Assembly: GCA_030612405.1 (NCBI GenBank)
Contig: JAUWNY010000001.1
Span: 1 to 39,708 of the forward strand
Length of the DNA stretch: 39,708 bases
Reading direction: 5' to 3'
Source of the DNA: Candidatus Methanophagales archaeon
GTDB taxonomy: Archaea; Halobacteriota; Syntropharchaeia; Alkanophagales; Methanospirareceae
The position numbers were made by a program, and so were the translations under genes. This document shows, piece after piece, positions 14,935 to 39,668 of this stretch. The notes beneath the pieces are model-generated. The model was not told the DNA's origin and searched no databases. It worked only from the letters and a program-made list of their open reading frames with translations. Positions within the stretch are counted from its first letter, which is position 1, and each line of letters starts with the position of its first letter.

Positions 14935-14943
14935 ACCTTCGCC

Positions 14944-23003: not shown

Positions 23004-23014
23004 TTTATATATAT
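23004..23014 (+). promoter_or_regulatory. TATA-box-like element tttatatatat upstream of the big operon
   Basis: It is the only strong A/T box in the 241-bp gap 22932-23172. It lies about 160 nt upstream of the ATG at 23173, which implies a long purine-rich leader. Confidence 0.25.
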
Positions 23015-23172
23015 CCTCAACAATAAAAATGCAATACGTTATCTTCAGGATAAAATAAGAGTAAAGGTGTGAAAATGAAAGCAAAAAGGGTGAAGTTGGT
23101 AACGATGCCCTTTGCGTGGTGTGAATGCGTGAAGGGGGTAAAAAGGGGAGGTGATGAAAAAGGGGAATAAAA

Positions 23173-24033
23173 ATGGACATAATAAAAGAGACAATAAAAG
23201 AGACGGAGAATCTGGGTATAAGTGCAACTCTTTCAAACGTAGTTATCACCAGGTTTGGTCCGTGGACGTTGAGCTATGTGAGATACGATGATGGTGAACT
23301 CGGATGCGGATGTGCGAACAATGAAGCGGAGAGATGGGGAATTCCAGAAGATGCATCGTTTATAAAAGACCTGCTCAATTTGAATGCTTACGATGCCGTA
23401 GACAAACTGGCGAGTTTAGAGAACAGCGTATTCATAAACTCGCTAAGGACTTCAATAACCTCTGCTCTCTCTTATAGGTTAATGAACGATGGAAACGAAT
23501 TGAAAAAAGAGGGATATGATGCTGAAGCCTACTATGCTCCAACCACTGCTCTTTTAGACCCTTCAAGATTTGTGAAAACGTTGGATAAAGTAGCGATAGT
23601 TGGTTTTCCCTCGTGGGCTATACACCTATATGCTGAGGTTGCAAATGAAGTGCGTGTTACCGAACTTATGGATTTGAAGCAGTTATCTGTTATTGATTTC
23701 GATGCTGATGAGGACTCAAACGTAAAAATATTTCCCGCTGATACGAATAAGGAAGTTCTAAGTAAGGCTGATGTTGTTTACCTAACTGGTGATACCGTAG
23801 TGAACGGCACAATAAATGAAATTCTCGAGTGCTCCAAAAATGCCAGATTACGAATAATCTACGGACCCTCATCGGCTTTTTATCCAAAGGTGCTTTTTGA
23901 ACGAGGTGTGGACGTTTCTTTGCCTATAATCTTTCCAAATACACCGGAGTTCAAAAGACGATTTGCACTAAGTCGAGGTTATTGGTATTTTATGAGGGAT
24001 GTAAAACAAATGTTAATAAAAAGGAGGGGATAA
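23173..24033 (+). CDS. DUF4213/DUF364 family protein ('putative heavy-metal chelation' enolase-N-like + Rossmann-like fold), copy 1
   Basis: 286 aa. N-terminal YVRYDDGELGCGCA (DUF4213-like). C-terminal VAIVGF...FPADTNKEVLSKADVVYLTGDTVVNGT...IIYGPSSAFYPKVLFERGVDV matches the DUF364 pattern. Confidence 0.7.
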   Translation: MDIIKETIKETENLGISATLSNVVITRFGPWTLSYVRYDDGELGCGCANNEAERWGIPEDASFIKDLLNLNAYDAVDKLASLENSVFINSLRTSITSALSYRLMNDGNELKKEGYDAEAYYAPTTALLDPSRFVKTLDKVAIVGFPSWAIHLYAEVANEVRVTELMDLKQLSVIDFDADEDSNVKIFPADTNKEVLSKADVVYLTGDTVVNGTINEILECSKNARLRIIYGPSSAFYPKVLFERGVDVSLPIIFPNTPEFKRRFALSRGYWYFMRDVKQMLIKRRG

Positions 24034-24034
24034 T

Positions 24035-25603
24035 ATGAAAAATAAGAAAAAAAATGCTTTTTGGGGTTGTATAATTGTGGGGATAGCTCTCGTAGGCGGT
24101 ATAATAATGGCGGGCTGTATAAGTCCACCAGAAGAAGTTCCCAAACAAGAACTGGTGGTTGGTATAAGCACAGATGTTGATAACTGGTATTTAGATAAGT
24201 TTCCTTATGGCGATGCGAGATTCGTGTGGTCACAGGTTTACGAAACTTTAGTACGATTAGATACAGATTTGAAGATACAACCAGGATTGGCGGAATACTG
24301 GGAAACCCCAGACGATGGAAGAACATGGGTATTTCATTTAAGGAAAGGAGTTAAATTCCACGACGGAACACCATTTAATGCGACAGCAGTGGTATTTTCG
24401 TACAGCAATATATCTTTCGTTAGAAAAGTTACACTTGGGAATGTTGACCATGTAGAAGCTCTCGATGAGTACAGTGTCAAATTTGTATCAAAGCGACCTA
24501 TACCCGTATCACATTATATCACGCATGTAGCATGGCCGATTATGAGTCCTACTTGTGTGGACGGAAAAGGAGAGTTCGTGAAACCAATTGGAACAGGACC
24601 ATTCAAATTTGAAAAGCAGATTAAAGACCAGGAAGTCGTGCTTGTAAGAAATGATGATTACTGGGGAGAAGAGCCAACCTTTGAGAAACTCATTTTTAAG
24701 GTAATTCCAGAGGTGGCGACACGTGTAATGGCTTTGGAGACCAAAGAAGTGGACATGATAATGAAAGTGCCGGAATTTGAAGTCGCGAGGTTAGAAGTGG
24801 AGCCAAATATCGAAGTATATAGGAAATTGACAACCTTCACTGACTTTTTACAATTTAACTGCGAAAAAGAACCTTTTAACGACACAAAAGTGAGAAAGGC
24901 AGTGGCATACGCGGTTGATACGGAAAAACTGGTTAAAACCGTTTTAGAGGATGTTGGAGAGCCAGCAAACGGCCGTCCTTTATCCCCCGTCATGTTGTAT
25001 TCGAAACAGGACCTCAAACTGTACAAATATAATCCAGAAAAGACTAAGGAATTATTGTCGGAAGCTGGCTGGAAAGACACCGATGGTGACGGAATAGTTG
25101 ATAAAGATGGAAAGCCATTCAAGGTGTCTCTCCTGGTGGAAAGAGGTGCTTGGACACCACCCCGCTTTATTCCAATGAGTGAAGCCATTCAGGGAGCGTT
25201 AAGAAAGGGGGGTATAGATGTAGAGATGCAAGTTCTGGAACCTGGAGCAGTCATAAAACTTGAAAGAGAAGGTAACTTTGACATGATCCTGAGGACAGGA
25301 TATTTTGTATGGGGTTCCTATCCAAGACACTTCTTTCTACATTATTCTAAATGTCCATACGGTCACTACAAAAACGAAGAATACGACAGACTTGTTGATT
25401 TGGCAGATTCGACGGTAGATACAAAAGAGCAAGAAAAGCTATACCACGAATTGCAGGACATGGTCATCGAAGAAGTCCCGGCATTTTATCTGGTTCACGA
25501 AGAAAAGATTGTCGCCGCGAATTCTTACGTAAAAGGGTATACTATAACAGCCGAAGACCCCTGGCTTAATCTCAAGGGCGTTTATCTGGAGGGAAAGACA
25601 TGA
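24035..25603 (+). CDS. ABC transporter substrate-binding protein, family 5 (NikA/OppA/DppA-type), copy 1
   Basis: 522 aa. N-terminal TM segment plus lipobox-like MAGC. Family-5 signatures LAEYWETPDDGRTWVFHLRKGVKFHDGTPFNA and GTGPFKF. Confidence 0.9.
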   Translation: MKNKKKNAFWGCIIVGIALVGGIIMAGCISPPEEVPKQELVVGISTDVDNWYLDKFPYGDARFVWSQVYETLVRLDTDLKIQPGLAEYWETPDDGRTWVFHLRKGVKFHDGTPFNATAVVFSYSNISFVRKVTLGNVDHVEALDEYSVKFVSKRPIPVSHYITHVAWPIMSPTCVDGKGEFVKPIGTGPFKFEKQIKDQEVVLVRNDDYWGEEPTFEKLIFKVIPEVATRVMALETKEVDMIMKVPEFEVARLEVEPNIEVYRKLTTFTDFLQFNCEKEPFNDTKVRKAVAYAVDTEKLVKTVLEDVGEPANGRPLSPVMLYSKQDLKLYKYNPEKTKELLSEAGWKDTDGDGIVDKDGKPFKVSLLVERGAWTPPRFIPMSEAIQGALRKGGIDVEMQVLEPGAVIKLEREGNFDMILRTGYFVWGSYPRHFFLHYSKCPYGHYKNEEYDRLVDLADSTVDTKEQEKLYHELQDMVIEEVPAFYLVHEEKIVAANSYVKGYTITAEDPWLNLKGVYLEGKT

Positions 25604-25658
25604 GCAGGAAAATGATTGCTTTGGATTGAATAAAAGAAGGAATTGCGTAACGTAAAAA

Positions 25659-26519
25659 ATGGGCATAATAAAAGATACGATAAAGGAGATAGAGAATCTG
25701 GGTATAAATGCAACTCTTTCAAACGTAGTCATCACCAGAATCGGTCCGTGGACATTGAGCTATGTGAGATATGATGATGGTGAACTCGGATGCGGTTGCG
25801 CAAACAACGAAGCGGAAAGAGAAGAGATTCCAGAAGACGTATCGTTTATAGAAGACCTGCTCAATTTGAATGCTTACGATGTCATAGACAAACTGGGGAG
25901 CTTGGAGAACAGCGTATTCATAAACTCACTAAGGGCTTCAATAGCTTCTGCACTCTCTTATAGGTTAATGAATGATGGAAACGAATTGAAAAAAGAGGGA
26001 TATGATGTTGAAGCCTTCTCTGCTCCAAACACACCTCTTTTAAACCCTTCAAAATTCGTGAAAACATCGGACAAAGTAGCAATGGTTGGATTTCACATGA
26101 TGACTACACCCCTGTGTGCAGAGGTTGCAAAGGAGGTGCATGTTACCGAGCTCATGGATTTGAAGCAGCTATTGCTTATAGATTTCAACGCTGATGATGA
26201 ATCTAACATAAAAATATTTCCTGCGGATAAGAGTAAGGAAGTTCTAAGTGGCGCTGATGTTGTTTACATCACTGGTGAGACCGTAGTGAATGGCACATTA
26301 AATGACCTTCTCGAGTTCTCCAAAAATGCCAGGACCAGAATAATTTATGGTCCCACTTCGGCTTTTTATCCAAAGGTGCTTTTTGAACGAGGTGTGGACG
26401 TTTCTTTGCCGATAATCTTCCCAAATACACCTGATTTTCGGAGACGATTCGCACTAAGCAGGGGTTATTGGTATTCTATGAGGGATGTAAAACAGATGTT
26501 AATAAAAAGGAGGGGGTAA
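25659..26519 (+). CDS. DUF4213/DUF364 family protein, copy 2 (tandem duplicate)
   Basis: 286 aa. It aligns gap-free with copy 1, with about 52 mismatches by manual count. Confidence 0.7.
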   Translation: MGIIKDTIKEIENLGINATLSNVVITRIGPWTLSYVRYDDGELGCGCANNEAEREEIPEDVSFIEDLLNLNAYDVIDKLGSLENSVFINSLRASIASALSYRLMNDGNELKKEGYDVEAFSAPNTPLLNPSKFVKTSDKVAMVGFHMMTTPLCAEVAKEVHVTELMDLKQLLLIDFNADDESNIKIFPADKSKEVLSGADVVYITGETVVNGTLNDLLEFSKNARTRIIYGPTSAFYPKVLFERGVDVSLPIIFPNTPDFRRRFALSRGYWYSMRDVKQMLIKRRG

Positions 26520-26520
26520 A

Positions 26521-28074
26521 ATGGAAAAGAAGAAAAAAATTGCGTTGTTGGTTTGTATAGTTGCGGGGGTGGCAATTGCAGTAGCTGGCTGTATAAGCCC
26601 ACCAGAAGAAGTTTCGAAACATGAATTAGTGGTTGGCATAAGCACAGATGTTGATAACTGGTATTTGGACAAGTTTCCCGGTGGAGACGCGAGATTTGTG
26701 TGGTCACAAGTTTACGAAACTTTAGTACGATTAGACACAGATTTGAATATACAGCCAGGATTGGCAGAATCGTGGGAAACACCTGATGATGGAAAAACAT
26801 GGATATTTCATTTAAGAAAAGGGATCAAATTCCATGATGGAACACCATTTAATTCGACCGCAGTTGTATTTTCATACAGTGATAAATCTTTCGCTAGAAG
26901 AGTTGCAATCGGGACGGTAGACCATGTAGAGGCTCTGGATGAATATAGTGTAAAATTTGTTTCAAAGCGACCTACGCCCGTACCACTTTATATCACGCAT
27001 GTGGCATGGCCCATTATGAGCCCCAGTTGTGTGGATGAGAAGGGAGAGTTCGTAAAACCAATTGGAACAGGACCGTTCAAATTTGAAAAACAGATAAAAG
27101 ACCAGGAAGTCGTGCTTGTAAGAAATGATGACTACTGGGAAGAGAAGCCAACCCTTGAGAAGGTCATTTTTAAGGTGATTCCTGAGGCGTCAACACGTGT
27201 GATGGCACTCGAAACTAAAGAAGTGGACATGATTATAAAGGTGCCGGAATTTGAAGTCTCGAGGTTAGAAAAGGAGTCAAATATCGAAGTATATAGGAAA
27301 CTAACAACCTTCACTGACTTTTTGCAATTTAACTGTGAAAAAGAGCCTTTTAATGACACAAAAGTGAGAAAGGCTGTGGCATATGCTATTGACACAGAAA
27401 AACTGGTAAACACCGTTTTAGAGGGTGTTGGAAAGCCGGCAAAAGGTCGTGCTTTTTCTCCTGTTATGTTGTATTCGAAACCAGATCTCAAACTGTATGA
27501 ATATGACCCAGAAAAGACTAAGGAATTATTATTAGAAGCTGGCTGGGAAGACACGGATGGTAACGGAATAGTGGACAGAGATGGAAAGCCGTTCAGGGTG
27601 ACTCTTTTGGTGGAAAGAGGCGCTTGGGCACCACGCTGGATTCCAACGGCTGAAGCTATTCAAGGAGAGTTAAGAAAGGTGGGAATAGATATAGAAATAC
27701 AAGTTCTGGAAAGTGGAGCAGTTACAAAGCTTGAAAGAGAAGGTAACTTTGATATGATGCTGAGGTCAGGATATTTCGTATGGGGACCTTATCCAAGACA
27801 CTTCTTTGTGCATCATTCTAAATCTCCATACGGTCACTACAAAAACGAAGAATACGACAGATTGGTTGATTTGGCAGACTCAACGGTAGATACAAAAGAA
27901 CAAGAAAAGTTATACCACGAATTACAGGAGATGGTCGTTGAAGAAGTCCCGGCATTTTATCTGGTTCATGAAGAGAAGATTGTCGCAGCGAATTCATACG
28001 TAAAAGGATATATTATCACAGCCGAAGATCCCTGGCTCAATCTCGATGGCGTTTACATGGAGGAGAAGAAATGA
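26521..28074 (+). CDS. ABC substrate-binding protein, family 5, copy 2 (tandem duplicate of copy 1)
   Basis: 517 aa. Lipobox-like VAGC. Highly similar to 24035..25603 along its whole length. Confidence 0.9.
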   Translation: MEKKKKIALLVCIVAGVAIAVAGCISPPEEVSKHELVVGISTDVDNWYLDKFPGGDARFVWSQVYETLVRLDTDLNIQPGLAESWETPDDGKTWIFHLRKGIKFHDGTPFNSTAVVFSYSDKSFARRVAIGTVDHVEALDEYSVKFVSKRPTPVPLYITHVAWPIMSPSCVDEKGEFVKPIGTGPFKFEKQIKDQEVVLVRNDDYWEEKPTLEKVIFKVIPEASTRVMALETKEVDMIIKVPEFEVSRLEKESNIEVYRKLTTFTDFLQFNCEKEPFNDTKVRKAVAYAIDTEKLVNTVLEGVGKPAKGRAFSPVMLYSKPDLKLYEYDPEKTKELLLEAGWEDTDGNGIVDRDGKPFRVTLLVERGAWAPRWIPTAEAIQGELRKVGIDIEIQVLESGAVTKLEREGNFDMMLRSGYFVWGPYPRHFFVHHSKSPYGHYKNEEYDRLVDLADSTVDTKEQEKLYHELQEMVVEEVPAFYLVHEEKIVAANSYVKGYIITAEDPWLNLDGVYMEEKK

Positions 28075-29660
28075 ACAAACGAATAACTGCTTTGCTGATT
28101 TGTATAATTGCCGGGGTGGTCCTCGTATGCGGTATAATACTGGCTGGCTGGATAAGCCCGCCAGAAGAAGTTCCTAAAGAGCTACCTCAAGAGATAGTTA
28201 TTGGGATAGGAGAAGATATAAAAGGGTTGGAGCCTGTTTCTGGTTGCCCATGGGGAGCACCACTTCGCCCGATTTATGAAACATTGGTAGTAGAGGATGC
28301 GAATCTTAAAATTCAACCTTTGCTAGCAGAGTCATGGGACGTATCAGAAGACGGTAAAGTATGGACTTTTCACCTGAATAAAGGAATAAAATTCCACGAT
28401 GGCACTCCATTCAATGCTTCGGTGGTGAAGTTTTCTTTCGAATATAAACCCGAAGCATACCGTGCTCTTTATGCAATGCTGAAATCAATAGATGCCATAG
28501 ATGAATACACGGTTAGATTCGTTTTAAATAAGTCGTATGCACCACTATTAAGGGATGTCAGTTCAGCTCCAATAATGAGCCCAACAGCCGTAGATGAAAA
28601 CGGAGAATTCAAATCACCTGTTGGGACAGGTCCATTCAAACTCGATGAGTGGGTCAAGAGCCAAAAAATTGTGCTGGTAAAGAATGAAAATTATTGGAGA
28701 GGGGCACCAAAATTAGAAGTAGTAACCTTTAAAATAATACCTGATGCCTCCGCAAGAGCTATGGCTTTAGAAACAGGGGAAATAGACCTGACAGGTCATC
28801 GAGCGGGTAGAGGCGTATTATACGTTCCAGACATACCGAGACTGAGAGAAGAACCGGAAATAAAAGTAATTGAAGGATATACACAGCCCTGCGTGAATTG
28901 GATTCAATTCAATACAGAAAAAGAGCCGTTCAATGATTTAAAAGTGAGAAAAGCTGTTTACTATGCCATTGATACTCAAAAAATGGTCACTTTTGTAGTG
29001 GGTGAGACAGCAGCACCATTATTACAGGGACCCTTGTCAATGCCATCTACCAAACATCTATTAAACCGGGAGCTAACGTGGTATCCTTACAATCCAGAGA
29101 AAGCAAAAGAGCTATTAGCAGAAGCGGGATGGAAAGATACAGATGGAGATGGCTTTCGAGATAGAAATGGGGAACAACTAAAAGTCACGTTTGTTCTCTC
29201 TGCTCGCCATCCGGAAGTACCAAAAATCGCAGAAATAGTCCAGGCACAATTGAAAGAGATTGGAATGGATGTGGAATTACAGACAGTCGAGTATGGAGCT
29301 CAGAAAATGATGTTTAAAAAAGGACAGTATGGCATGATGATGCAATTGGGCGTTTGTGGACATGGTGACCCTTCTCTCTGGCTTAATTACTTCTTCCATT
29401 CGAAAAGGGGAGTAAATTGCGCATTCAAAAATGATACGCTAACTGCATTGATAGACAAGGTATATACAACGGTAAACGAGGATGAGCGTGTCAAGATATT
29501 CTATGATATTCAGGAAGTATTGGAAGAAAATGTCCCAGGGGTTTTTATTTATACTGATGCAAACGTTGTCGCTGTGAATGAGCGTGTTAAGAACTATGAG
29601 ATGTTTGGAGGAATACACGGGGCATATCTCAGCCTATGGAAGGTGTATATCGAGGAATAA
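28071..29660 (+). CDS. ABC substrate-binding protein, family 5, copy 3 (divergent)
   Basis: 529 aa. LAESWDVSEDGKVWTFHLNKGIKFHDGTPFNA and GTGPFKL. ATGA start/stop overlap with copy 2. The lipobox position reads LAGW instead of AGC. Confidence 0.9.
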   Translation: MNKRITALLICIIAGVVLVCGIILAGWISPPEEVPKELPQEIVIGIGEDIKGLEPVSGCPWGAPLRPIYETLVVEDANLKIQPLLAESWDVSEDGKVWTFHLNKGIKFHDGTPFNASVVKFSFEYKPEAYRALYAMLKSIDAIDEYTVRFVLNKSYAPLLRDVSSAPIMSPTAVDENGEFKSPVGTGPFKLDEWVKSQKIVLVKNENYWRGAPKLEVVTFKIIPDASARAMALETGEIDLTGHRAGRGVLYVPDIPRLREEPEIKVIEGYTQPCVNWIQFNTEKEPFNDLKVRKAVYYAIDTQKMVTFVVGETAAPLLQGPLSMPSTKHLLNRELTWYPYNPEKAKELLAEAGWKDTDGDGFRDRNGEQLKVTFVLSARHPEVPKIAEIVQAQLKEIGMDVELQTVEYGAQKMMFKKGQYGMMMQLGVCGHGDPSLWLNYFFHSKRGVNCAFKNDTLTALIDKVYTTVNEDERVKIFYDIQEVLEENVPGVFIYTDANVVAVNERVKNYEMFGGIHGAYLSLWKVYIEE

Positions 29661-29678
29661 AAACAGGAGGTAAAAAAC

Positions 29679-30149
29679 ATGAAAATAACAGAAGAGGTGA
29701 AGGAAGTAATAAATAACAATATTGTCCATTTAGCGACTTCTTCAAGAGATGGTAACCCAAACGTGGTTCCAGTAGGTCTTTGCAGAGCAATCAGCGACCA
29801 TGAACTGCTGATTGTAGATGTGTTTTTCAAAAAGACGAGAAAAAACATGGAAGAGAATCCCCGGGTTGCAATTGCCGTTGAGGCACTGGAAGAACTGAAA
29901 GCATATCAGATTAAAGGGAAAGCAAAGATTTTCGCTCAGGGTGAATTATACGATAAAGCGGTTGAAATAATGGGAGAACAAAACGAAGTGCGAGAGAAAA
30001 GGATTTCGGTACTGAGAGAAAAAAGACCTGAGATGGCAGAGAGGTTTGAAAAACTTGTTGCAAGTCATCATAAATTGAGACCGAAAGCGGTTGTGCTGGT
30101 AGATGTGGAGGAAATATATTCGACAATGCGTGGGGTGGGGGGCAAATAA
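29679..30149 (+). CDS. Pyridoxamine 5'-phosphate oxidase-like split-barrel flavin-binding protein
   Basis: 156 aa. VHLATSSRDGNPNVVPVG...LLIVDVFFKKTRKNMEENPRVAIAV is the typical PNPOx-like/FMN-binding split-barrel pattern. Confidence 0.7.
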   Translation: MKITEEVKEVINNNIVHLATSSRDGNPNVVPVGLCRAISDHELLIVDVFFKKTRKNMEENPRVAIAVEALEELKAYQIKGKAKIFAQGELYDKAVEIMGEQNEVREKRISVLREKRPEMAERFEKLVASHHKLRPKAVVLVDVEEIYSTMRGVGGK

Positions 30150-30151
30150 AA

Positions 30152-31219
30152 ATGGAATTTGAAGAAGTATTGAAAAATGCAGAGGAAAATGAAATAACAA
30201 AGGAAGAAGCACTGTATCTTTTTAAAGAAACAGGCAGATATGACAAGGCATTGAAACTGTTTGAAGTTGCAAGCAGGGTACGGGATGACGAAATTGGGAA
30301 TGTGTTTAAGCTGGATGGCTTTATAGGTTTAATTACGCATTGCACTGTGGATCCACCATGCAGATACTGCCATAGTTCAAGCAATATTAAATCTGGTTTT
30401 GGACTCGAGAATGTTCTAACCATTGATGAGATCGTTGAAGGTGCCAGATTGATAGAGGAAACAGGAATAAGCATGACAGAGCTCGGTGGCGGAACGACAG
30501 TAGGAAACAGCGGAGAAAAAGTTATTGAAGCCGTTAAAGCAGTTAAAAGAGCAACTGACCTCGATATTTGGGTAAACGTTGGTCCAGCGCTTTCTGAAGA
30601 CACGTTAAAGGAACTAAAGAACGTAGGAGGTGTAGATGTAACAAGTTCTTTCGAAGTTAACCCGCTAAATGAAGAGTTATTTAGAAAAGTAAAACCAGGA
30701 GATGACTTGGATGCAAGAAAAAAACTTGCTAACATGATAAACGATACAGGATTAGGATTAAACAGTGTACTAATGAGTGGGTTAGGAGAATCTTATGAGG
30801 ACCGCGTAGATCACATGTTTTACCTGAAACAGTTTGAAAATTTCAAGTATTTCCTGTGCACTTGGTTCCATCCAGCTCCTGGAACTCCGATGGCTAACTA
30901 TCCATTAACTTCGCCATTAGAGGCGGCAAAAACTGCTGCAATCGCACGCTTGATTTTTCGAGATATTGACATCCATATTAGCGGATACGAACACATTCCA
31001 CTTTGGATAATGGCTGGAGTCAACAGAGTCGTTCATGCTGGTGCATCTGTACACAGAGTAAGGGATGGTGCTGGATGGCATACAATAGGTGCAGAAGTAA
31101 AACACATCAATGATAGATTAGACTTTCTCAATTTACTTCCAACAACCGTAAGATTCATTACTGGGGCTGGAATGGAAGTTGAACCTGAAATTGAGAGGAG
31201 GTGGATAAATGAAGTTTGA
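30152..31219 (+). CDS. Radical SAM enzyme, BioB/HydE/PylB/HcgA-like, with a CX5CX2C cluster motif (RS1)
   Basis: 355 aa. HCTVDPPCRYCHSS (C64, C70, C73). ELGGGTT about 40 residues downstream. The N-terminal ITKEEALYLF helix is typical of this branch. Confidence 0.8.
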   Translation: MEFEEVLKNAEENEITKEEALYLFKETGRYDKALKLFEVASRVRDDEIGNVFKLDGFIGLITHCTVDPPCRYCHSSSNIKSGFGLENVLTIDEIVEGARLIEETGISMTELGGGTTVGNSGEKVIEAVKAVKRATDLDIWVNVGPALSEDTLKELKNVGGVDVTSSFEVNPLNEELFRKVKPGDDLDARKKLANMINDTGLGLNSVLMSGLGESYEDRVDHMFYLKQFENFKYFLCTWFHPAPGTPMANYPLTSPLEAAKTAAIARLIFRDIDIHISGYEHIPLWIMAGVNRVVHAGASVHRVRDGAGWHTIGAEVKHINDRLDFLNLLPTTVRFITGAGMEVEPEIERRWINEV

Positions 31220-32246: not shown

Positions 32247-32248
32247 AA

Positions 32249-33805
32249 ATGGTATCAAGAAAAGTGACAATTGGACTGGTAGTAATTGGCATAATAGTGT
32301 TGGGCGTCTTAATAGCAGGTTGTTTAAAGCAGGAAGAAGCTCCGAAGCGAGAACTCACAATTGGTGTAAGGGGATGGGCAGGACCATCTGATATAATATC
32401 AGCGATGGGTGGCAGTGCTGATCATCTGGTCTTCGAAACGCTTGTCATGATGGATCAAAATAAGGAGTTTAAGCCGCTATTGGCTGAATCTTGGGACATT
32501 TCCGATGATGGGAAAACATACACCTTCCATTTAAGGGATAAAGTGAAATTCCACGATGGAACTCCACTAACAGCAAATGATGTCAAATTTTCGATTAACC
32601 ACTTCAAATATCCCCCACTAATATCTGTTATAGAGGACATACAGGTTACAGATGATCATACGGTGAAATTTATTCTGAAAAGACCTTCCCCCCAGTTTCT
32701 CTTTGAGTTACACTTTGGTGGTGCGATTATAAAGCCCACTGAATATGAAAATGGCGTGGTGACAAATGCAGTAGGAACAGGTTCATTTAGACTCGGGGAT
32801 CATGCTAAAGATCAGTATTTTACTGTCATTAAAAATGAAAACTACTGGGGTGGCAATGTGAAACTCGACAAAGTAACTTTCAAAGTAATACCCTCCCCTC
32901 ACACGAGGGTAATGGCACTCGAAACCGGCGAAATAGATATGACTGGGACCGATGCAGGAAGTCACATTCCAACCGATGCAATTTCAGGATTAAAAAATAT
33001 TCCTGACCTTGAACTAATGAAATCTGAGAAGACAGGGTTCAGAATTAATGTTGTCGCTTTCAATTGCCTTAAGTCACCGTTTAATGATTTGCGTGTAAGA
33101 AAAGCGGCTTGCTATGCAATTGACAAAAATGCAATAAATGTGATTCTTGGAGATGGAGGCAGAGTTGTTGATGGACCTGTCTTTCCTGAAACTGAGTGGT
33201 ACAATCCTACAATTAAGGGTTATCCATACGATTTAGAGAAAGCCAAAAAACTATTAGCCGAAGCAGGATGGGAGGACACGGATGGCGACGGAATCTTAGA
33301 GAAGGATGGAAAGCCCTTTAAGGTCTCTTTCGTTATATCTCAAGTAAGCCCGCTTTGGTCTAATATCGCAGAGGTGATACAAGCGCAATTGAAAAGGGTG
33401 GGCATAGATGTGAAAATACAGGTGTTGGAGTCAGGAGCACATTTTGCAGCTCTGAGCAGGGGCAGTTTTGATACGACGATCAAGGTGGATACAGGGACGC
33501 CAAGGATACCTCCCGACTTTTCACATACCTATCATTCCATCTCCAGAGCAGGTGGGTGGGGTGCAAAATTAATCGAAAACGAAACTCTCGACCGCTTGAT
33601 CAATCAGCATCTTTCCACTCTCGATCATGGAAAGCAACTTGAACTTGCTTATGAGATACAAGAGGTCATCAATGAAAACAGACCTGTCGCACTCTACATC
33701 GAAGACTATCGCATAATAGCGATGAACAAAAAAGTCCAGGGCTTTGAGCCCATGCCAGGATGGAGTTCGCTCCGCTATCTCTGGACGGTGAATATTGAGG
33801 ACTAA
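32249..33805 (+). CDS. ABC substrate-binding protein, family 5, copy 4 (divergent)
   Basis: 518 aa. Lipobox-like IAGC. LAESWDISDDGKTYTFHLRDKVKFHDGTPLTA and GTGSFRL. Confidence 0.9.
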   Translation: MVSRKVTIGLVVIGIIVLGVLIAGCLKQEEAPKRELTIGVRGWAGPSDIISAMGGSADHLVFETLVMMDQNKEFKPLLAESWDISDDGKTYTFHLRDKVKFHDGTPLTANDVKFSINHFKYPPLISVIEDIQVTDDHTVKFILKRPSPQFLFELHFGGAIIKPTEYENGVVTNAVGTGSFRLGDHAKDQYFTVIKNENYWGGNVKLDKVTFKVIPSPHTRVMALETGEIDMTGTDAGSHIPTDAISGLKNIPDLELMKSEKTGFRINVVAFNCLKSPFNDLRVRKAACYAIDKNAINVILGDGGRVVDGPVFPETEWYNPTIKGYPYDLEKAKKLLAEAGWEDTDGDGILEKDGKPFKVSFVISQVSPLWSNIAEVIQAQLKRVGIDVKIQVLESGAHFAALSRGSFDTTIKVDTGTPRIPPDFSHTYHSISRAGGWGAKLIENETLDRLINQHLSTLDHGKQLELAYEIQEVINENRPVALYIEDYRIIAMNKKVQGFEPMPGWSSLRYLWTVNIED

Positions 33806-33807
33806 AA

Positions 33808-34824
33808 ATGGACAAGATTATATACAGGATGCCCGAAGCGGATTTTGGACTTATAGGTGAAATAGCAAAAGGAAACGAAAAAGCGAATATCCTATTTGCT
33901 GCAGCAGACTTAGAAATTTTTGATTCGCTCACCCACCCAAAAACAGCAGACCAGGTCTCAGAGGAAATCAAGACCGACCCGTACTTGACTGAGAAGTTCT
34001 TGAATGCACTGGTAGCCCTGAATCTTATCCACAAAATAGATAATCGATACTCGAATACCAAACTTGCAGAGACGTTTCTTGTAAGAAAAAGCCCTTTTTA
34101 TCAGGGCACTTTATTTGAGATGAAGAAGAGAGGATTAACAGATTGGCAAAGAATAAGTGATGCCCTGAAGAACGGTGGCATTAAAATTAAAGCAGGAACA
34201 GAAAATAAGAGCATCATTGACAGGACTTTTATTGTAGGACATGCTGAAATAGCCATCACAGGAGCTATGCAAAGAGCGGTAGATGCTGTGTCATCACTTC
34301 CAGAATTTAAAGGAGCAAAGAAGCTTCTCGACCTTGGAGGAGGTCATGGGCTGTATTCTATTGCCTTCCATCAATTGAAGCCAGACCTCGAAGTTGTTTT
34401 ATTTGATTTGCCTCACGTTACAGAAATTGCAAAAGAATATCTTGAGCAGCATGGAACGCAAGGCAAGATAAACATTATCGCTGCTGATTTCACTAAGGAC
34501 GATATTGGCAATGGCTATGACGTTATTTTCGTATCTGATGTGACAATAACAGGTATCCTAAAAAAGGTATATGATGCTCTGAATGAGAATGGTGTTTTGA
34601 TATATCGACGATGGACAATTAACGATGATAGAACATCACCTTTAACCTCTGTTTTATTTGATTTCATGCTGGCAATGAGGAGGAGTGAGCACCGGGTATA
34701 CACATTGGGAGAATACATCCGTCTTTTAGAAGCCACCGGATTCTCTATCACACGAATTTTAGACCTCTCCTCTCCACAAGACCCAACAAAAATCATCGTT
34801 GCAAAGAAGAAGGAGAGATGCTGA
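33808..34824 (+). CDS. Class I SAM-dependent methyltransferase of the small-molecule O-methyltransferase family (winged-helix dimerisation domain + Rossmann domain)
   Basis: 338 aa. SAM motif I LLDLGGGHGLYSIAF, acidic loop VLFDLPHV, and the N-terminal ~100-aa helical domain typical of the COMT/CrtF/BchU-like family. Confidence 0.8.
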   Translation: MDKIIYRMPEADFGLIGEIAKGNEKANILFAAADLEIFDSLTHPKTADQVSEEIKTDPYLTEKFLNALVALNLIHKIDNRYSNTKLAETFLVRKSPFYQGTLFEMKKRGLTDWQRISDALKNGGIKIKAGTENKSIIDRTFIVGHAEIAITGAMQRAVDAVSSLPEFKGAKKLLDLGGGHGLYSIAFHQLKPDLEVVLFDLPHVTEIAKEYLEQHGTQGKINIIAADFTKDDIGNGYDVIFVSDVTITGILKKVYDALNENGVLIYRRWTINDDRTSPLTSVLFDFMLAMRRSEHRVYTLGEYIRLLEATGFSITRILDLSSPQDPTKIIVAKKKERC

Positions 34825-35756
34825 AATATATATTAAAACGGCTTCTATTGGTTTTTGTAGTGGTCCTTGGTGTAACAGTGGTTACTTTTTCTGCAATGCA
34901 GTCCGCTCCTGGCGACCCTGCAGAGATGATTGCGGTAGCCAGGTATGGCGAGGACTTGACACAAGAGGAAATAGAATGGGTAAGGGTAACAGAGGGCTTA
35001 GACGCTCCAGTGTATATTCAATACCTAGGATGGCTGGAGCACGTTTTACGCCTGGATCTGGGTAAGTCACTGATAACCTATGAAGATGTCTTAGAAGAGA
35101 TACTGACCAGATTCCCGGCAACCCTGGTGTTGACAATCTCAAGTTTAATTTTATCTCTATTGATAGCGCTACCTATTGGAATAATCAGTGCCGTCAGAAA
35201 AAATACTATTGTTGATAATGCGTGCATGACCGGCGCTTTGCTTGGGGTGTCCATGCCCAACTTCTGGCTGGGATTGCTTTTAATCTGGTTATTTGCTCTA
35301 TCTCTTGGATTGCTTCCCAGTTTTGGCTACGGCAGCATCAAACATCTTATTCTTCCCACGATAACCTTAGGCACATCAATGGCTGCTATCACAACTCGCC
35401 TTACTCGTTCGAGCATGCTGGATGTGCTAAACCAGGATTACATAGTAACGGCAAAAGCAAAAGGATTGGATGAGAAAACAATACTTTTAAAGCATGCGTT
35501 GAAAAATGCTATGCTACCCGTAATTACGTTTGTGGGGTTGCAGTTGGGCTTTTTACTTGGAGGAGCTGTTATTGTTGAGACAATATTCGCATGGCCCGGA
35601 ATTGGAAGATTATTGGTGGACTCCATATATGCCAGGGATTTTGCGTTAATTCAAGGTTGTGTCTTATTTATTGCTGTTATTTTCGCATTAGCCAACCTGG
35701 CAGTAGATATCCTCTATGCCTACTTAGACCCGAGAATAAGGTACGAGAAAAAATGA
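34818..35756 (+). CDS. ABC transporter permease (DppB/OppB/NikB-type)
   Basis: 312 aa. N-terminal MLKYILKRLL signature of this family. EAA-like loop YIVTAKAKGLDEKTILLKHALKNA. Confidence 0.9.
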   Translation: MLKYILKRLLLVFVVVLGVTVVTFSAMQSAPGDPAEMIAVARYGEDLTQEEIEWVRVTEGLDAPVYIQYLGWLEHVLRLDLGKSLITYEDVLEEILTRFPATLVLTISSLILSLLIALPIGIISAVRKNTIVDNACMTGALLGVSMPNFWLGLLLIWLFALSLGLLPSFGYGSIKHLILPTITLGTSMAAITTRLTRSSMLDVLNQDYIVTAKAKGLDEKTILLKHALKNAMLPVITFVGLQLGFLLGGAVIVETIFAWPGIGRLLVDSIYARDFALIQGCVLFIAVIFALANLAVDILYAYLDPRIRYEKK

Positions 35757-36610
35757 ACGAAACGTGGATAGCACTTAAGGAACTCGGAGAAAACAGGATG
35801 GCTGCAGTAGGGATAGTAATCATCATCATTTTAGTATTTGTTGCGTTTTTCGCCCCTTTCCTTGCACCCCATAACCCTTTAGAACAAAATCTGGAAAAAC
35901 GGCTGCTCGCACCCAATAGCGAATACCCTTTTGGCACTGATGAACTGGGAAGGGGCATATTCTCAAGAGTCCTGTATGGGACGAGAATATCCTTAGAAAT
36001 TGGCGTTATAGTAGTGGGAATAACAGCCTTAGTTGGCACAATCCTTGGGGGTATATCTGGCTACTACGGTGGAATAGTGGATGAGATTATAATGAGGTCG
36101 GTGGATATAGTGCTTGCTTTTCCAAGCATAATTCTCGCTTTGGTGATTGCAGGACTTTTAGGACCCGGCCTTTTCAATGTGATACTTGCCCTTGCCGTGA
36201 CGCATTGGCCTGCATACACAAGACTTGTGAGGGGGATGGCACTCTCCGTAAAGGAAAAAGAATTTGTTGAAGCGGCAAGAGCGTTAAGAGCCTCAAACTT
36301 CTATATTATGCGTCGTCATATCTTGCCAAATTGTATAAGTCCTGTTATTGTGCTTGCAACTCTTGGTATTGCCCATACGATAATTTTTGCAGCAGCTCTC
36401 AGTTTCTTAGGCTTGGGCATTCAACCTCCTACACCTGAGTGGGGATCAATGCTTAAATCAGGCATCCCTTATTTGCGTAGTGCACCTTTTTTAACCTTTT
36501 TCCCAGGCATCATGATAATGATTACCGTGCTTGCTTTTAATTTTTTAGGTGATGGATTAAGAGATACGTTAGATCCAAGGGCAAAGGAAATGATAATGAT
36601 GAGGAAATGA
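35753..36610 (+). CDS. ABC transporter permease (DppC/OppC/NikC-type)
   Basis: The start is moved to the ATG at 35753 (MNETWIALKEL...), which overlaps the upstream stop as ATGA. 285 aa. EAA-like FVEAARALRASNFYIMRRHILPN. Confidence 0.85.
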   Translation: MNETWIALKELGENRMAAVGIVIIIILVFVAFFAPFLAPHNPLEQNLEKRLLAPNSEYPFGTDELGRGIFSRVLYGTRISLEIGVIVVGITALVGTILGGISGYYGGIVDEIIMRSVDIVLAFPSIILALVIAGLLGPGLFNVILALAVTHWPAYTRLVRGMALSVKEKEFVEAARALRASNFYIMRRHILPNCISPVIVLATLGIAHTIIFAAALSFLGLGIQPPTPEWGSMLKSGIPYLRSAPFLTFFPGIMIMITVLAFNFLGDGLRDTLDPRAKEMIMMRK

Positions 36611-37560
36611 CTTTATTGAAAATAGAAGACCTGGGGGTTTATTTCAATGCGAGGGGAAGAATTGTAAAAGCAAACAATGGCGTTGATTTAGAGATAGAGG
36701 AAAATGAGATTTTAGGCTTAATAGGGGAGACTGGCTGTGGGAAATCAATCCTTGGAAGGGCGATAATAGGGCTGCTTTCAGAAAATGTAGAAATTAAGGG
36801 AAAAATCATTTACCGGAGAGAAAATTTATTGACGCTTTCTGAAGACAAAATGAGGCAAATTAGAGGTAAAGAGATTGGAATGATGCTCCAGAATCCGTCT
36901 ACCTCACTGAATCCCGTGTTAACTGTTGGAGAGCAGATAGCAGAAGTTTACCGCTATCACGAGGGCATTGGAAAAGAAGAAGCGAGAAAGAAAGCGGCGG
37001 AGACGTTCAAATTGGTTGGCATAGACCCAGAAAGGATGGATGAATATCCACATCAATTTAGCGGTGGGATGAAGCAGCGAGTTATGATTGCCATTGGATT
37101 AGCACTAAATCCCCGAATTTTAATAGCAGATGAACCAACCACAGGCTTGGATTACTCAATGAAAAAAAAGATTGTAGATTTGATGTCTGAGTTAGTCAGA
37201 AGCAGGAACATGAGTATGCTGCTAATAACCCATGACCTGGAAGTGGCGAAAAGAATGTGTGACAGAATTGCAGTAATGTATGCAAGCGAACTGTTGGAAA
37301 TTGCCCCTGTTGAGAAAATTTTATCTGAGCCCAAGCACCCTTACACGCAAGATCTGCTGGACTCACTTCCACGTAGAGGCTTAAAGCCAATACCGGGTGC
37401 AAGCCCCAGCCTCACTTCACTCCCCGCAGGGTGTAGATTCCATCCGAGGTGCAGATATAAAAGCGATGAGTGTTCAGAAAAACATCCAGAGATGATAGAG
37501 ATAGAGGCTAAAAACCATGTAAGGTGCTTCCTATATAAAAATGACGAGAATAAAGGTTGA
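36607..37560 (+). CDS. ABC transporter ATP-binding protein (DppD/OppD/NikD-type)
   Basis: 317 aa. Walker A GETGCGKS, signature FSGGMKQR, Walker B ILIADEPT. C-terminal Cys-rich extension CRFHPRCRYKSDEC. Confidence 0.9.
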   Translation: MTLLKIEDLGVYFNARGRIVKANNGVDLEIEENEILGLIGETGCGKSILGRAIIGLLSENVEIKGKIIYRRENLLTLSEDKMRQIRGKEIGMMLQNPSTSLNPVLTVGEQIAEVYRYHEGIGKEEARKKAAETFKLVGIDPERMDEYPHQFSGGMKQRVMIAIGLALNPRILIADEPTTGLDYSMKKKIVDLMSELVRSRNMSMLLITHDLEVAKRMCDRIAVMYASELLEIAPVEKILSEPKHPYTQDLLDSLPRRGLKPIPGASPSLTSLPAGCRFHPRCRYKSDECSEKHPEMIEIEAKNHVRCFLYKNDENKG

Positions 37561-38239
37561 GAACCTGAAAAAATATTTCTATTCAGGAATATTCAGGAAG
37601 AAAGTGATAAAGGCGGTTGATGGTGTGAGTTTTGAGATAAAGGAAGGAAAAACTTTGGGTTTGGTTGGTGAGAGCGGCTGCGGGAAAACAACTGTTGGGA
37701 GGACAATTTCAAGACTTATAAATCCTACAGAGGGGAAAATAATCTTCGGTGGTGAAGACATTACGAGCCTGAATGGCCGCGAACTAAAAAAATTGGGAAG
37801 GGAGATGCAGGTGATATTCCAGAATCCCGAGTCATCTCTGAATCCGAGGATGAGAATCTATGACAGTATTGCTGAACCCCTAAGGATTCATAAGGTCTGT
37901 AATAAAAAAGAGGAAAAAGAGAGGATTTATGAGTTAATCGAAACGGTTAATTTAAATGAAGAGCTTCTATTCAGGTATCCTCATGAGTTAAGTGGCGGGC
38001 AAATTCAGAGAGTTGTGATAGCAAGAATTTTGAGTTTGAATCCAAAATTTATTATTGCAGATGAGCCCACTTCTATGCTGGATGTCTCAGTCCAGGCACA
38101 AATTCTCAATTTGATGAAGGATTTGCAGAAAAAATATGGGATAAGTTACCTGTTTATTTCCCACGACTTAGAAGTAGTAGAGTGGATGAGTGATGAAATT
38201 GCTATAATGCATAAAGGAAAGATTGTGGAGAGGAAATAA
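37541..38239 (+). CDS. ABC transporter ATP-binding protein (DppF/OppF/NikE-type, short form)
   Basis: 232 aa. Walker A GESGCGKTT, signature LSGGQIQR, Walker B FIIADEPT. Confidence 0.9.
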   Translation: MTRIKVENLKKYFYSGIFRKKVIKAVDGVSFEIKEGKTLGLVGESGCGKTTVGRTISRLINPTEGKIIFGGEDITSLNGRELKKLGREMQVIFQNPESSLNPRMRIYDSIAEPLRIHKVCNKKEEKERIYELIETVNLNEELLFRYPHELSGGQIQRVVIARILSLNPKFIIADEPTSMLDVSVQAQILNLMKDLQKKYGISYLFISHDLEVVEWMSDEIAIMHKGKIVERK

Positions 38240-38306
38240 GTATATTAATTGGAAAGTTTATCTTGGTAAAAGCACTTCTTTTCTAAAAGGCACACTAAAC
38301 TAACAA

Positions 38307-39668
38307 ATGAACCTAAAAGAAGCCACCAGGATATTGGTTTTAGACACCATTCACGGAGCGGAAATAATTGCAGAAGAGCTAAAGGAACTTGGAAAACAAG
38401 CGGAGGTGTTCGACCCATACCATCAGACCTTTACTAAAGCGTTGGATTACGATCTGGTTATCGCACCGGTTCACCTAAATCCAAACTTCGAGGTTGTAAA
38501 ACGGGCTTTAACGATGGAGATACCTTTTATGAGCCATCACAAAGCGATAAAAGAAATTGCACGTTTGAAAAACCTGTTCAGCGATACAAAGGTGGTGGAA
38601 GTAACGGGGACGGTGGGGAAGACGGCGGTCTGCGAACTAATCTGTCAGCTGCTGAAAAACAATAATGCGAAGGTGCTTTCTCATACCAGTTCCGTTACAA
38701 GATTCCAATCGGCAGGGGAAGAGGTGCAATTCCCCAGAATCGGCGGCGCACCTGCGAACGTATTAAAAGTGATGCGCATAGCGAAAGAAAAGAATTTGAA
38801 GGCGGAGATTGCAGTATTTGAAATTTCGCTTGGTTTAACGGGAATCGGCGATGTAGGCGTAATAACGAGTTTGGAAGCAGATTACCGGATTGCCGGTGGC
38901 ACAAAAGACGCTTCTGTTGCGAAAATCGCCTCGATACAGAATTACGCAGACGAAATAGAAGGTAGAAACAGAAAAAGCGCCGTGATAGTTCTTCCAGATA
39001 GTTTCGCGGAAATGCCGGAAAAACGAAAAAATGAACTGAAAGGGTTCAGGTTCAATACGAACTTCTTTGGCGCCACGGCAAAGGCAAAGAACCTGTGGTT
39101 AGACGATACCGAGCACAAGGTCTTTTTCGACGGGCTGAAAACCGTAAATGGTGATTCCGTAAGTGGCGGGATGAAATTCCATTTTGAAGCTGGTTTCTAC
39201 GGGGACTATTACAGGAACAGTTTAGAAGCGTCGTTTTGCACGGTTTTGAGTCTTGGCATTCCACCAGAAAGGGTCAATACAGGCGACATTTCCGCAGTGC
39301 GCGGCAGATTGAAGGTTGAGAACCGAAAAGGGCGGTTTTTGATTGATAATTCCAATTCAGGCACAAAATTGACGTTCCTCGATGTGATAACGGAAATGGC
39401 GCGGCGGTATTCTGATAAGATGATTCTGATTGTTGGCGTGGAGTCGGAATATGTGTGTGAAGGTGTGAACGAGGAAGAACTGAAAGAAGTGGTAGCGAGT
39501 GCAGCAAGAGATTTCGTTGAGATAATAATCGTGGGTGATGAGTTCAAGGATAAAATCGAAGGTAAGACGGTGTTTTTTTCTGATACGCTGGATGCGGCGT
39601 TGGAGAAGGCGGTCAGCGATTCAGAAGAAGGTTCTGTGATTATCTCTAACGTGAAGACGTGGCGGTGA
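38307..39668 (+). CDS. cfbE: Mur-ligase-family protein, probable coenzyme F430 synthetase (CfbE-like)
   Basis: 453 aa. Rossmann-like N-domain, Mur-ligase P-loop GTVGKT (nt 38607-38624), and a three-domain length. In archaea without a (pseudo)murein context, the known Mur-ligase homolog is CfbE. The symbol is given on family and context, not on remembered sequence identity. Confidence 0.5.
   Translation: MNLKEATRILVLDTIHGAEIIAEELKELGKQAEVFDPYHQTFTKALDYDLVIAPVHLNPNFEVVKRALTMEIPFMSHHKAIKEIARLKNLFSDTKVVEVTGTVGKTAVCELICQLLKNNNAKVLSHTSSVTRFQSAGEEVQFPRIGGAPANVLKVMRIAKEKNLKAEIAVFEISLGLTGIGDVGVITSLEADYRIAGGTKDASVAKIASIQNYADEIEGRNRKSAVIVLPDSFAEMPEKRKNELKGFRFNTNFFGATAKAKNLWLDDTEHKVFFDGLKTVNGDSVSGGMKFHFEAGFYGDYYRNSLEASFCTVLSLGIPPERVNTGDISAVRGRLKVENRKGRFLIDNSNSGTKLTFLDVITEMARRYSDKMILIVGVESEYVCEGVNEEELKEVVASAARDFVEIIIVGDEFKDKIEGKTVFFSDTLDAALEKAVSDSEEGSVIISNVKTWR

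Follow-up and report, generated by a model that had tools for sequence, protein, structure and literature searches.

The 39,708-nt stretch of contig JAUWNY010000001.1 analysed here (the window) carried 15 plus-strand genes at 23173-39668, of which the first 14 are read as a nickel-acquisition operon and the last is cfbE, the gene for coenzyme F430 synthase. The host is an archaeon of the anaerobic methanotrophic clade 1 (ANME-1; Methanophagales). In the favoured reading (probability about 0.55), one NikBCDE-type translocon serves four substrate-binding proteins (SBP) and is combined with two enzyme modules, whose products would be one or two chelators of nickel that the cell takes back up for F430 synthesis. 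The earlier note on this DNA had proposed a nickel-binding small molecule tied to uptake and feeding F430 synthesis, and this remained the best-supported reading, given the nickel-type permeases and the NikR, LarBCE and cfbE contexts. Its broader view, that the stretch is a single functional unit linked to nickel in which an importer encloses enzymes of small-molecule chemistry, was likewise supported.

Both permeases passed nickel-specific cut-offs: the NikB-type permease that of the Opp2B nickel ATP-binding cassette (ABC) permease model (382.1 bits; cut-off 350), and the NikC-type permease that of nickel_nikC (372.3 bits; cut-off 358.45). The top NCBIfam match of all four SBP was nickel_nikA, at 242-274 bits (SBP5-1 242, SBP5-3 274, SBP5-4 267; cut-off 393). 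Their next-best models were Opp5A/Opp4A or the staphylopine receptor CntA, with every score below cut-off; the opine_bind_CntA model gave 173-224 bits (SBP5-4: 224; cut-off 800). Escherichia coli NikA was among the best PDB matches of the receptors (4e-53 for SBP5-3), and a His aligned with its nickel-coordinating His416 in SBP5-1 to SBP5-3 only. All four SBP had an N-terminal hydrophobic segment followed by a lipobox-like A-G-C/W (AGC in SBP5-1), and the N-termini of the operon enzymes were hydrophilic. As expected from these N-termini, the SBP are predicted to be lipid-anchored extracellular receptors and the enzymes to be cytoplasmic.

Orthologues of rSAM2, the second of two radical S-adenosylmethionine (SAM) proteins in the operon, were gathered by protein search, contig look-ups and a metagenome scan, and their flanks were annotated through BLASTP to reference proteins; the phylogenetic profile was based on metagenome contigs and on the taxonomic labels of metagenome-assembled genomes (MAG). 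A binding-protein gene was adjacent to, or within two genes of, the rSAM2 orthologue (50-91% identity) and was accompanied by ABC importer genes in 34 of the 35 loci with enough flank. This association was found in Bacteria and Archaea and with both SBP folds (SBP_bac_5 and Peripla_BP_2). The sole exception had an energy-coupling factor S-component-like (ECF-S-like) membrane protein and a divergent NikR (L015). Named contigs with related loci came from marine sediment metagenomes.

About nine architectures were distinguished among the rSAM2 loci. Four had a Nik-type importer: type A, the window type (window, L005-L008, L020, L021); type B, O-methyltransferase (OMT)-DUF364-SBP5-PNPOx-rSAM2-SBP5-NikBCDE (L018, L019); type C, LarC-CbiM-PDGLE-CbiQ-ATPase-LarE-LarB-rSAM2-SBP5-NikBC (L016, L017, L027); and type D, rSAM2-SBP5-NikBCD (L039). 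Types E to H used the Peripla_BP_2 fold: type E, NikR-rSAM2-Peripla_BP_2-FecCD-ATPase (L001, L002, L029-L031); type F, Peripla_BP_2-rSAM2-FecCD-ATPase (L032-L035); type G, TonB receptor-rSAM1-Peripla_BP_2-rSAM2-FecCD-ATPase (L014, L037); and type H, arrays of up to at least 10 Peripla_BP_2 genes with rSAM1, rSAM2 and a Methyltransf_11 enzyme (L012, L013, L022-L024, L028, L036). Type I was NikR / ECF-S-like protein-rSAM (L015).

Nickel genes recurred in these flanks. A NikR gene stood immediately upstream, or in divergent orientation, in L002, L029 and L015 and passed its cut-offs, including in type E, which came from Aerophobetes MAG. In L016 (type C), LarC, NikMNQO, LarE and LarB were directly upstream, and the Lar genes, a nickel-pincer cluster, passed their cut-offs. 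The type B contig was bacterial and held a nearly full enzyme set; it encoded LspA and a synthase of the RluA family, each scoring above cut-off, as well as a zinc-finger protein of DksA/TraR type that scored below it, and was without cfbE. A TonB-dependent receptor gene, whose best-scoring models were haemin receptors, was upstream in L014 and L037. Orthologues of rSAM1 (40-49% identity) were paired with rSAM2 in L012, L014, L022, L028 and L037. An Atribacteria MAG (L044) had DUF364-DUF364-OMT after a FecBCD-type importer, without any radical SAM gene.

Some type H loci had additional genes: L012 encoded a tautomerase, L022 and L028 each a CobN/BchH-like chelatase, and L022 also an ABC-2 exporter. 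The L012 array (1743-17895) had at least 10 paralogous Peripla_BP_2 genes in a row, interspersed with two radical SAM genes, a methyltransferase and the tautomerase (52 amino acids), and no permease within 18 kb. The 1272-amino-acid chelatase (L022, 12539-16357; L028, 3463-7281) was located amid Peripla_BP_2 arrays and radical SAM genes and scored 946 bits on the BchH model (cut-off 829), a hint that the lineage may have a step involving a tetrapyrrole or (de)chelation. The gene upstream of the L022 receptor array (53-4912) encoded a 1619-amino-acid protein that matched dockerin, NosD/beta-helix and, seven times, cohesin.

The SBP themselves sorted with the enzymes. Those right after rSAM2 in L016, L018 and L039 were 48-55% identical to SBP5-4 and 34-44% identical to the other three SBP of the window, and the SBP5-4 type was the receptor behind rSAM2 wherever the importer was of the Nik type. 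The SBP after DUF364 in L018 was 69.6% identical to SBP5-3, and the SBP directly after DUF364 in L046 was closest to SBP5-1/SBP5-2 (58-60%). On this orthology, an HmdB-like radical SAM module (module R; in the window rSAM1 and rSAM2, preceded by the PNPOx-like protein) appears paired with SBP5-4, and a second module (module D; two DUF364 enzymes and the OMT) with SBP5-1, SBP5-2 and SBP5-3. Because SBP orthology follows enzyme type, the window operon is interpreted as a fusion of modules R and D on one NikBCDE-type translocon (Table 1). Each module stands alone elsewhere, with receptors of two unrelated folds, which points to coupling of the enzymes to the ligand and not to the receptor protein family.

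Against this background, an ordinary Opp/Dpp-type transporter of oligopeptides or another solute, with unrelated enzymes interleaved and no metal role, is very improbable. Such a transporter would agree with the generic nature of family-5 SBP and Opp-type ATPases and with the failure of the SBP to reach any NCBIfam equivalog cut-off, but not with permeases that exceeded nickel-specific cut-offs, nor with an enzyme-importer association that was repeated over two unrelated SBP folds and recurred with NikR, LarBCE, NikMNQO and cfbE neighbours.

The 15 genes were called as open reading frames (ORF), and gene calls on near-identical public contigs agreed. The 14 genes at 23173-38239 were tightly packed; junctions, in order and including the one before cfbE, were +1, +55, +1, -4, +18, +2, -11, +2, +2, -7, -4, -4, -20 and +67 nt. 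The order of Pfam domains was DUF364, SBP_bac_5, DUF364, SBP_bac_5, SBP_bac_5, PNPOx_N, Radical_SAM (two), SBP_bac_5, Methyltransf_2 plus Dimerisation, BPD_transp_1 (two), ABC_tran (two) and Mur_ligase_M, and both Radical_SAM proteins had an additional weak BATS match. The 14-gene order, domains and tight spacing previously described were borne out by these calls, with the second permease begun at 35753, the gene-caller start (L005), instead of 35591, where the longest ORF starts. The first DUF364-SBP pair (23173-25603) was 82% (DUF364) and 84% (SBP) identical in amino acids to the second (25659-28074), of which it is a recent tandem duplicate.

Table 1. Positions of the operon genes and of upstream features in the window.
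Feature	Position	Strand	Basis
ABC-2 type exporter pair	21400-22931	+	Pfam ABC_tran, ABC2_membrane; 241 nt upstream of operon
DrrA-like ATPase of ABC-2 pair	21400-22140	+	NCBIfam drrA 305 bits, just under cut-off 312
ABC2_membrane permease of ABC-2 pair	22137-22931	+	Pfam
Candidate archaeal promoter TTTATATATA and overlapping inverted repeat TATCCTCAA-N23-TTCAGGATA	23003-23052	+	
Leader with predicted structure, one stem pairing the ribosome-binding region GGAGGUGA	23036-23172	+	
DUF364 enzyme copy a, module D	23173-24033	+	PF04016 75 bits
SBP5-1, family-5 binding protein, module D	24035-25603	+	PF00496 305 bits
DUF364 enzyme copy b, module D	25659-26519	+	PF04016 77 bits
SBP5-2, family-5 binding protein	26521-28074	+	SBP_bac_5; 84% identical to SBP5-1
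SBP5-3, family-5 binding protein	28071-29660	+	PF00496 331 bits
PNPOx-like split-barrel flavoprotein	29679-30149	+	PF01243 62 bits
rSAM1, HmdB/HcgA-like radical SAM, module R accessory	30152-31219	+	NCBIfam HmdB (TIGR03957) 188.5 bits, cut-off 320.9
rSAM2, HmdB/HcgA-like radical SAM, module R hallmark	31209-32246	+	NCBIfam HmdB (TIGR03957) 229.5 bits, cut-off 320.9
SBP5-4, family-5 binding protein	32249-33805	+	PF00496 309 bits
Class I SAM methyltransferase, O-methyltransferase family (OMT)	33808-34824	+	Methyltransf_2 and Dimerisation
NikB-type permease	34818-35756	+	NCBIfam Opp2B
NikC-type permease	35753-36610	+	NCBIfam nickel_nikC
ABC ATPase, OppD/NikD type, oligo_HPY domain	36607-37560	+	Pfam/NCBIfam
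ABC ATPase, OppF/NikE type	37541-38239	+	Pfam/NCBIfam
CfbE, coenzyme F430 synthase	38307-39668	+	NCBIfam F430_CfbE 257.3 bits

The two radical SAM proteins (41% identical to each other) scored highest on the HmdB model, below its cut-off. Both had the cluster motif CX5CX2C (rSAM1 CTVDPPCRYC, rSAM2 CRTNPPCRYC), which occurred in 54 of 55 family members and in Methanocaldococcus HmdB (CKINPKCSYC; 41% identical to rSAM2) and has been described as unique to HcgA, that is HmdB (PMC10100467). HcgA forms 6-carboxymethyl-5-methyl-4-hydroxy-2-pyridinol, which is the ring in the cofactor of [Fe]-hydrogenase; its small substrate is still unknown (PMC10100467). The rSAM2-type family was tiny (28 representative clusters at E <= 1e-30 among 1.84 billion), and the best PDB match of rSAM2 was HydE. 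Genes hmd and hcgB-G were absent from the window and from every related locus.

The BioB model gave 85 bits for rSAM1 and 104 bits for rSAM2 (cut-off 225), and PylB gave 81 bits for rSAM1; assignments to BioB, PylB, CofG/H and MqnC/E were rejected, as their scores were far under the HmdB score and under cut-offs, and the HydE model was also far lower. The three motif Cys were the only invariant Cys across the family, and rSAM1-type proteins had 4-5 Cys in total. None of the BioB auxiliary-cluster ligands (Cys97, Cys128, Cys188) was conserved, the positions of Cys128 and Cys188 being non-Cys, and Pfam gave no match to the MiaB/RimO domains (UPF0004, TRAM), reporting Radical_SAM and weak BATS alone. 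Sulfur insertion of a known kind is unlikely because the auxiliary-cluster Cys are missing. The pair was therefore classed from its sequences as HmdB/HcgA-like and not, as the earlier note had it, BioB-type; the likening to the paired enzymes CofG/CofH and MqnC/MqnE held as a loose analogy only.

The PF04016 scores of the DUF364 copies (Table 1) were well over the cut-off of 23. An AlphaFold model of copy b (predicted local distance difference test, pLDDT, 94) matched the DUF364 crystal structures 3npg and 3l5o (template modelling, TM, score 0.65-0.82), with both domains expected of the DUF364 fold (enolase-N-like and Rossmann-like). A nicotianamine synthase or AzeJ-type fold was rejected; the model matched DUF364 structures only, and its N-terminal domain also enolase-superfamily capping domains. 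MAG labels of the subfamily were Methanophagales, Methanosarcinales, Atribacteria and Elusimicrobiota, and copy b had an orthologue of 73% identity in L018, which is bacterial, and orthologues of 59-60% in the Atribacteria L044. Metal chelation was proposed for DUF364 in 2010, on genome context alone, and a 2024 preprint tied one member to molybdate uptake by cofitness. A single DUF364 enzyme has been characterised: Orf5, from the bonnevillamide cluster, which turns 4''-methyl-SAM into methyl-azetidine carboxylate by cyclisation (PMC12930334).

The OMT had its best PDB matches in the DsyB/MTHB S-methyltransferase (4e-20) and RedM, and resembled BchU weakly (NCBIfam); its orthologues adjoined DUF364 in L018 (55%) and L044 (44%). 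The PNPOx-like protein matched F420-PPOX families and HutZ weakly, with HupZ as its best PDB match (3e-10), and a 67% identical orthologue was immediately upstream of the radical SAM gene in L018.

Under the favoured reading, the enzymes would produce nickelophores, one or two small ligands that bind nickel and whose synthesis depends on SAM. With HcgA as the analogue, the radical SAM enzymes would yield an N-heterocyclic carboxylate; the OMT would parallel HcgC, and the tautomerase of type H would fit a pyridinol/pyridone. DUF364, for which Orf5 is the analogue, would draw on the aminocarboxypropyl part of SAM. The Orf5 cyclisation is of the same reaction type that begins nicotianamine synthesis, and nicotianamine synthase and CntL are precedents for use of the aminocarboxypropyl part. 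The ligands would then exit the cell, possibly via the upstream ABC-2 exporter, bind Ni(II), be captured by the receptors and be re-imported, and the imported nickel would feed F430 synthesis; the neighbouring gene encodes CfbE, the final enzyme of that pathway. A wider proposal is put forward tentatively, at somewhat less than even odds: that anaerobes of marine sediments, bacterial and archaeal alike, share a hitherto unrecognised radical-SAM route to nickel-specific chelators, in which HmdB-like enzymes give a pyridinol-type ligand and DUF364 a SAM-derived ligand, each with its own receptor, and that ANME-1 combine both to meet the very large need for nickel of F430 and methyl-coenzyme M reductase (MCR).

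These same genes could act in the opposite direction, with receptors taking up nickel complexes made by others or abiotically and cytoplasmic enzymes breaking or modifying the ligand to free Ni(II); this, the chief rival, is considered unlikely, though it deserves weight. Ni(II), unlike iron, is not releasable by reduction, so intracellular processing of the ligand is chemically sensible. It has a precedent in ChuW/HutW, radical SAM enzymes of uptake operons that destroy imported haem anaerobically, and HydE, the structural relative of rSAM2, has a metal-amino-acid complex as its substrate. The minimal loci (NikR-rSAM-SBP-permease-ATPase) had neither exporter nor other enzyme, the numerous receptor paralogues per locus suggest several ligands, and HupZ, the best solved relative of the PNPOx-like protein, is a haem-utilisation protein. 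A set of 4-5 enzymes with two SAM-dependent transferase-type enzymes looks biosynthetic, however; HcgA and Orf5, which of all characterised proteins stand nearest to the two hallmark enzymes, are biosynthetic too, and the ABC-2 exporter directly upstream also disfavours processing.

Several observations weigh against the favoured reading. No window protein reached the NikA, NikD or NikE equivalog cut-offs, and the NikA ligand residue Arg137 was not conserved (W, W, A and G in the four SBP). The window had no NikR gene and no recognisable NikR box; a box sought through inverted repeats gave no motif common to the loci. Receptor paralogues numbered from 4 (window) to more than 10 (L012) per locus, beyond the needs of one self-made ligand, and a dedicated exporter was not consistent, a nearby ABC-2 pair being found only in the window and L022. 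Minimal loci with a single radical SAM enzyme fit post-import processing of a ligand equally well, and DUF364 genes also occur beside transporters of molybdate/tungstate, which are not known to involve an organic ligand.

The gene that follows the operon, described earlier as a CfbE-like Mur ligase, proved to be a genuine cfbE: it passed the equivalog cut-off of NF033197 (F430_CfbE; 250 bits), and its homologues (55-96% identity) had a CfbE_C domain and were named coenzyme F430 synthase in Methanophagales/Halobacteriota MAG. The remaining window genes were archaeal housekeeping genes (PAN, aMBF1, Hef, NAC, Rpo subunit F); on these two grounds the host was assigned to ANME-1. The contig L005 had an Oxidored_nitro gene two genes downstream of cfbE. 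Protein HDN59170.1, from a cluster whose representative was 98% identical to the window rSAM2, is labelled Candidatus Marinimicrobia/Neomarinimicrobiota (NCBI); this label is probably a binning error, because the operon-bearing contigs encode archaeal genes and CfbE.

The adjacency of cfbE appears better explained by nickel supply, and CfbE is a neighbour whose pathway probably consumes the imported nickel. In a Methanomicrobia-labelled archaeon (L043, 1-21317; CfbE 56% identical), a plain importer (SBP5-NikBC-fused NikDE), just 27-37% identical to that of the window and without the window's enzymes, was directly upstream of cfbE. Since this importer holds the same position, nickel import beside cfbE is a recurring arrangement. 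The L043 nickel/F430 supercluster also had CbiX, NikMNQO, an FmdE-domain protein, a CfbD-like protein, HemC, sirohaem synthase, HemA, HemB, HemD, HemL, TP_methylase and a CbiA-type amidase. Another Methanophagales cfbE had neither an importer nor a window-type operon alongside. The common denominator would thus be the supply of nickel to whichever nickel cofactor the organism makes, with LarBCE in type C as another example.

The earlier note had also suggested that the radical SAM pair and the methyltransferase turn F430 into the 17(2)-methylthio-F430 of ANME-1. The prior for this tailoring was raised because the host is ANME-1, a clade that uses methylthio-F430; the enzymes of the modification were still unknown in 2023 (PMC10702137), the operon ended just 67 nt from cfbE, and the best solved relative of the OMT is the DsyB S-methyltransferase. 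Tailoring is nonetheless scarcely credible. The hallmark enzymes were found with importers in bacteria without F430 genes in their flanks, namely in Aerophobetes with NikR, on the LspA/RluA contig, in Atribacteria and at a TonB-receptor locus, which is the kind of occurrence that the earlier note itself had named as refuting tailoring. The BioB auxiliary ligands were not conserved, rSAM1-type proteins had few Cys, and MiaB/RimO-type domains were absent (Pfam). A BLASTP search with E. coli BioB gave no match in the G60 ANME-1 genome, and the G60 culture contains methylthio-F430 (PMC10702137, Table S4). The E. coli BioB query detected both window rSAM proteins (54-57 bits; E about 1e-12 to 1e-13), so G60, a draft genome, probably has no window-type rSAM. 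The second Methanophagales cfbE without such an operon also disagrees with tailoring, which in addition leaves the four receptors unexplained.

Import of F430, of its degradation products or of sedimentary nickel porphyrins, followed by reuse or by ring opening for nickel, is an improbable alternative. Haem and cobalamin are among the cargoes of the families to which the Peripla_BP_2/FecCD importers and TonB receptors of other loci belong, the TonB receptor scored highest on haemin-receptor models, and the L022 and L028 loci included the CobN/BchH-like chelatase; cfbE is adjacent, the named contigs are from marine sediment, the PNPOx-like protein is akin to HupZ and HutZ, and the OMT is weakly like BchU. 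These similarities to tetrapyrrole enzymes are weak, however, the window has a Nik-type importer whose permeases bear nickel signatures, and the rSAM enzymes have no relationship to the ring-opening enzymes of HemN-like type.

Upstream of the operon, the ABC-2 pair is a candidate exporter of the product and possibly a part of the system, whose membership is uncertain. It was kept in L005, L006 and L008. A second ABC-2 pair in L022 was beside a different architecture, and its permease was merely 24% identical to that of the window; the ABC-2 exporter was therefore rejected as a conserved part of the system and kept as possible. A TATA-like element (about 23003-23014) was about 160 nt ahead of the first gene, and the inverted repeat over it (I1; 89% complementarity) may be an operator. 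The leader, of about 135 nt, had a predicted fold with a minimum free energy of -25 kcal/mol (z = -3.94; 0 of 200 shuffles as stable) and could be metal- or ligand-responsive. Rfam gave no match on the leader even at E <= 1, and Rfam searches of the window and leader regions yielded no riboswitch.

Taken as a nickelophore system, the operon resembles the logic of the Cnt systems (staphylopine, pseudopaline, yersinopine; cntKLM, cntABCDF, cntE), with different biosynthetic enzymes. Both have a family-5 SBP, a NikBCDE-like importer and cytoplasmic SAM-using enzymes, and the Cnt product is a small molecule that binds nickel, zinc and cobalt. Profile searches of the operon genes found no homologue of CntL (nicotianamine synthase-like), CntM (opine dehydrogenase) or CntK (racemase). 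No biosynthetic enzymes are shared, the window having DUF364, OMT, the PNPOx-like protein and two HmdB-like radical SAM enzymes; it also has four receptors against one in Cnt, and its candidate exporter is of the ABC-2 type and not of the major facilitator superfamily. Likeness to E. coli NikABCDE extends to the NikB-type and NikC permeases, the His416 equivalent in three of four receptors and, in related loci, a NikR at the head; the window differs in lacking a NikR gene, in receptors under the NikA cut-off with Arg137 replaced, and in having four receptors and five embedded enzymes.

The individual enzymes had parallels elsewhere. HcgA, the best-scoring NCBIfam family, shares CX5CX2C with rSAM1 and rSAM2 and is accompanied by the SAM methyltransferase HcgC, as the rSAM proteins are by the OMT; the latter score below equivalog, neighbour metal-chelate importers, belong to a family also present in bacteria, and are without hmd or hcg in the window. 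Orf5 has the same Pfam family and fold as the window DUF364 and also co-occurs with a radical SAM enzyme, but its partner is a cobalamin-dependent radical SAM C-methyltransferase in a non-ribosomal peptide cluster, whereas those in the window are HmdB-like rSAM proteins and an importer. Anaerobic haem operons (ChuW/HutW, HutX, HutZ, TonB/ABC) have a radical SAM enzyme and a PNPOx-fold protein within an uptake operon, as here, and are the model for post-import processing; ChuW is HemN-like with the canonical CX3CX2C, in contrast to CX5CX2C in the window.

Full-text literature searches found no description of an HmdB-like radical SAM enzyme or of DUF364 in nickel uptake, and searches on nickelophores, NikR with radical SAM, and archaeal metallophores found no such system; nor did any relevant later work on the substrate of HcgA come up. 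Since F430 is required by every MCR, methane production and methane oxidation are limited by the supply of nickel, which ANME and other sediment anaerobes obtain from water that is sulfidic and poor in the metal. If the favoured reading is true, the nickel chelator would belong to a novel metallophore class, formed in an oxygen-independent way by enzymes with no kinship to those of nicotianamine/staphylopine synthesis, and a small orphan radical SAM clade and part of DUF364 would acquire a function. Under the wider proposal, HcgA would become a relative of metallophore synthases, and DUF364 would gain its long-suspected role in metal chelation. The four receptors and five enzymes would be testable targets in uncultured ANME-1, and an attractive but unsupported candidate for the methylthio-F430 pathway is removed.

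Other features of the window were observed outside the operon. The minus strand at 62-5259 encoded a pair of ATPases of CbiA/MinD type that include ferredoxin domains, a pair of NifX-like (Nitro_FeMo-Co) proteins, of which one has DUF5320, an ATPase of Mrp/NUBPL type and DUF134. An equivalent NifX-DUF5320 gene and two CbiA-Fer4 genes were found in the Aerophobetes L002 (16886-19326), about 5 kb downstream of the NikR-rSAM operon; their common presence may be coincidence or a shared metal-cofactor theme. An S-adenosylhomocysteine hydrolase gene (12252-13508, minus strand) was about 10 kb upstream of the operon with its four SAM-using enzymes and is probably housekeeping. A 984-amino-acid Eco57I/MmeI-like fused restriction-modification enzyme (7612-10566) was encoded at a G+C of about 0.41-0.43, compared with 0.47-0.49 around it, and this stretch may be a small acquired island.

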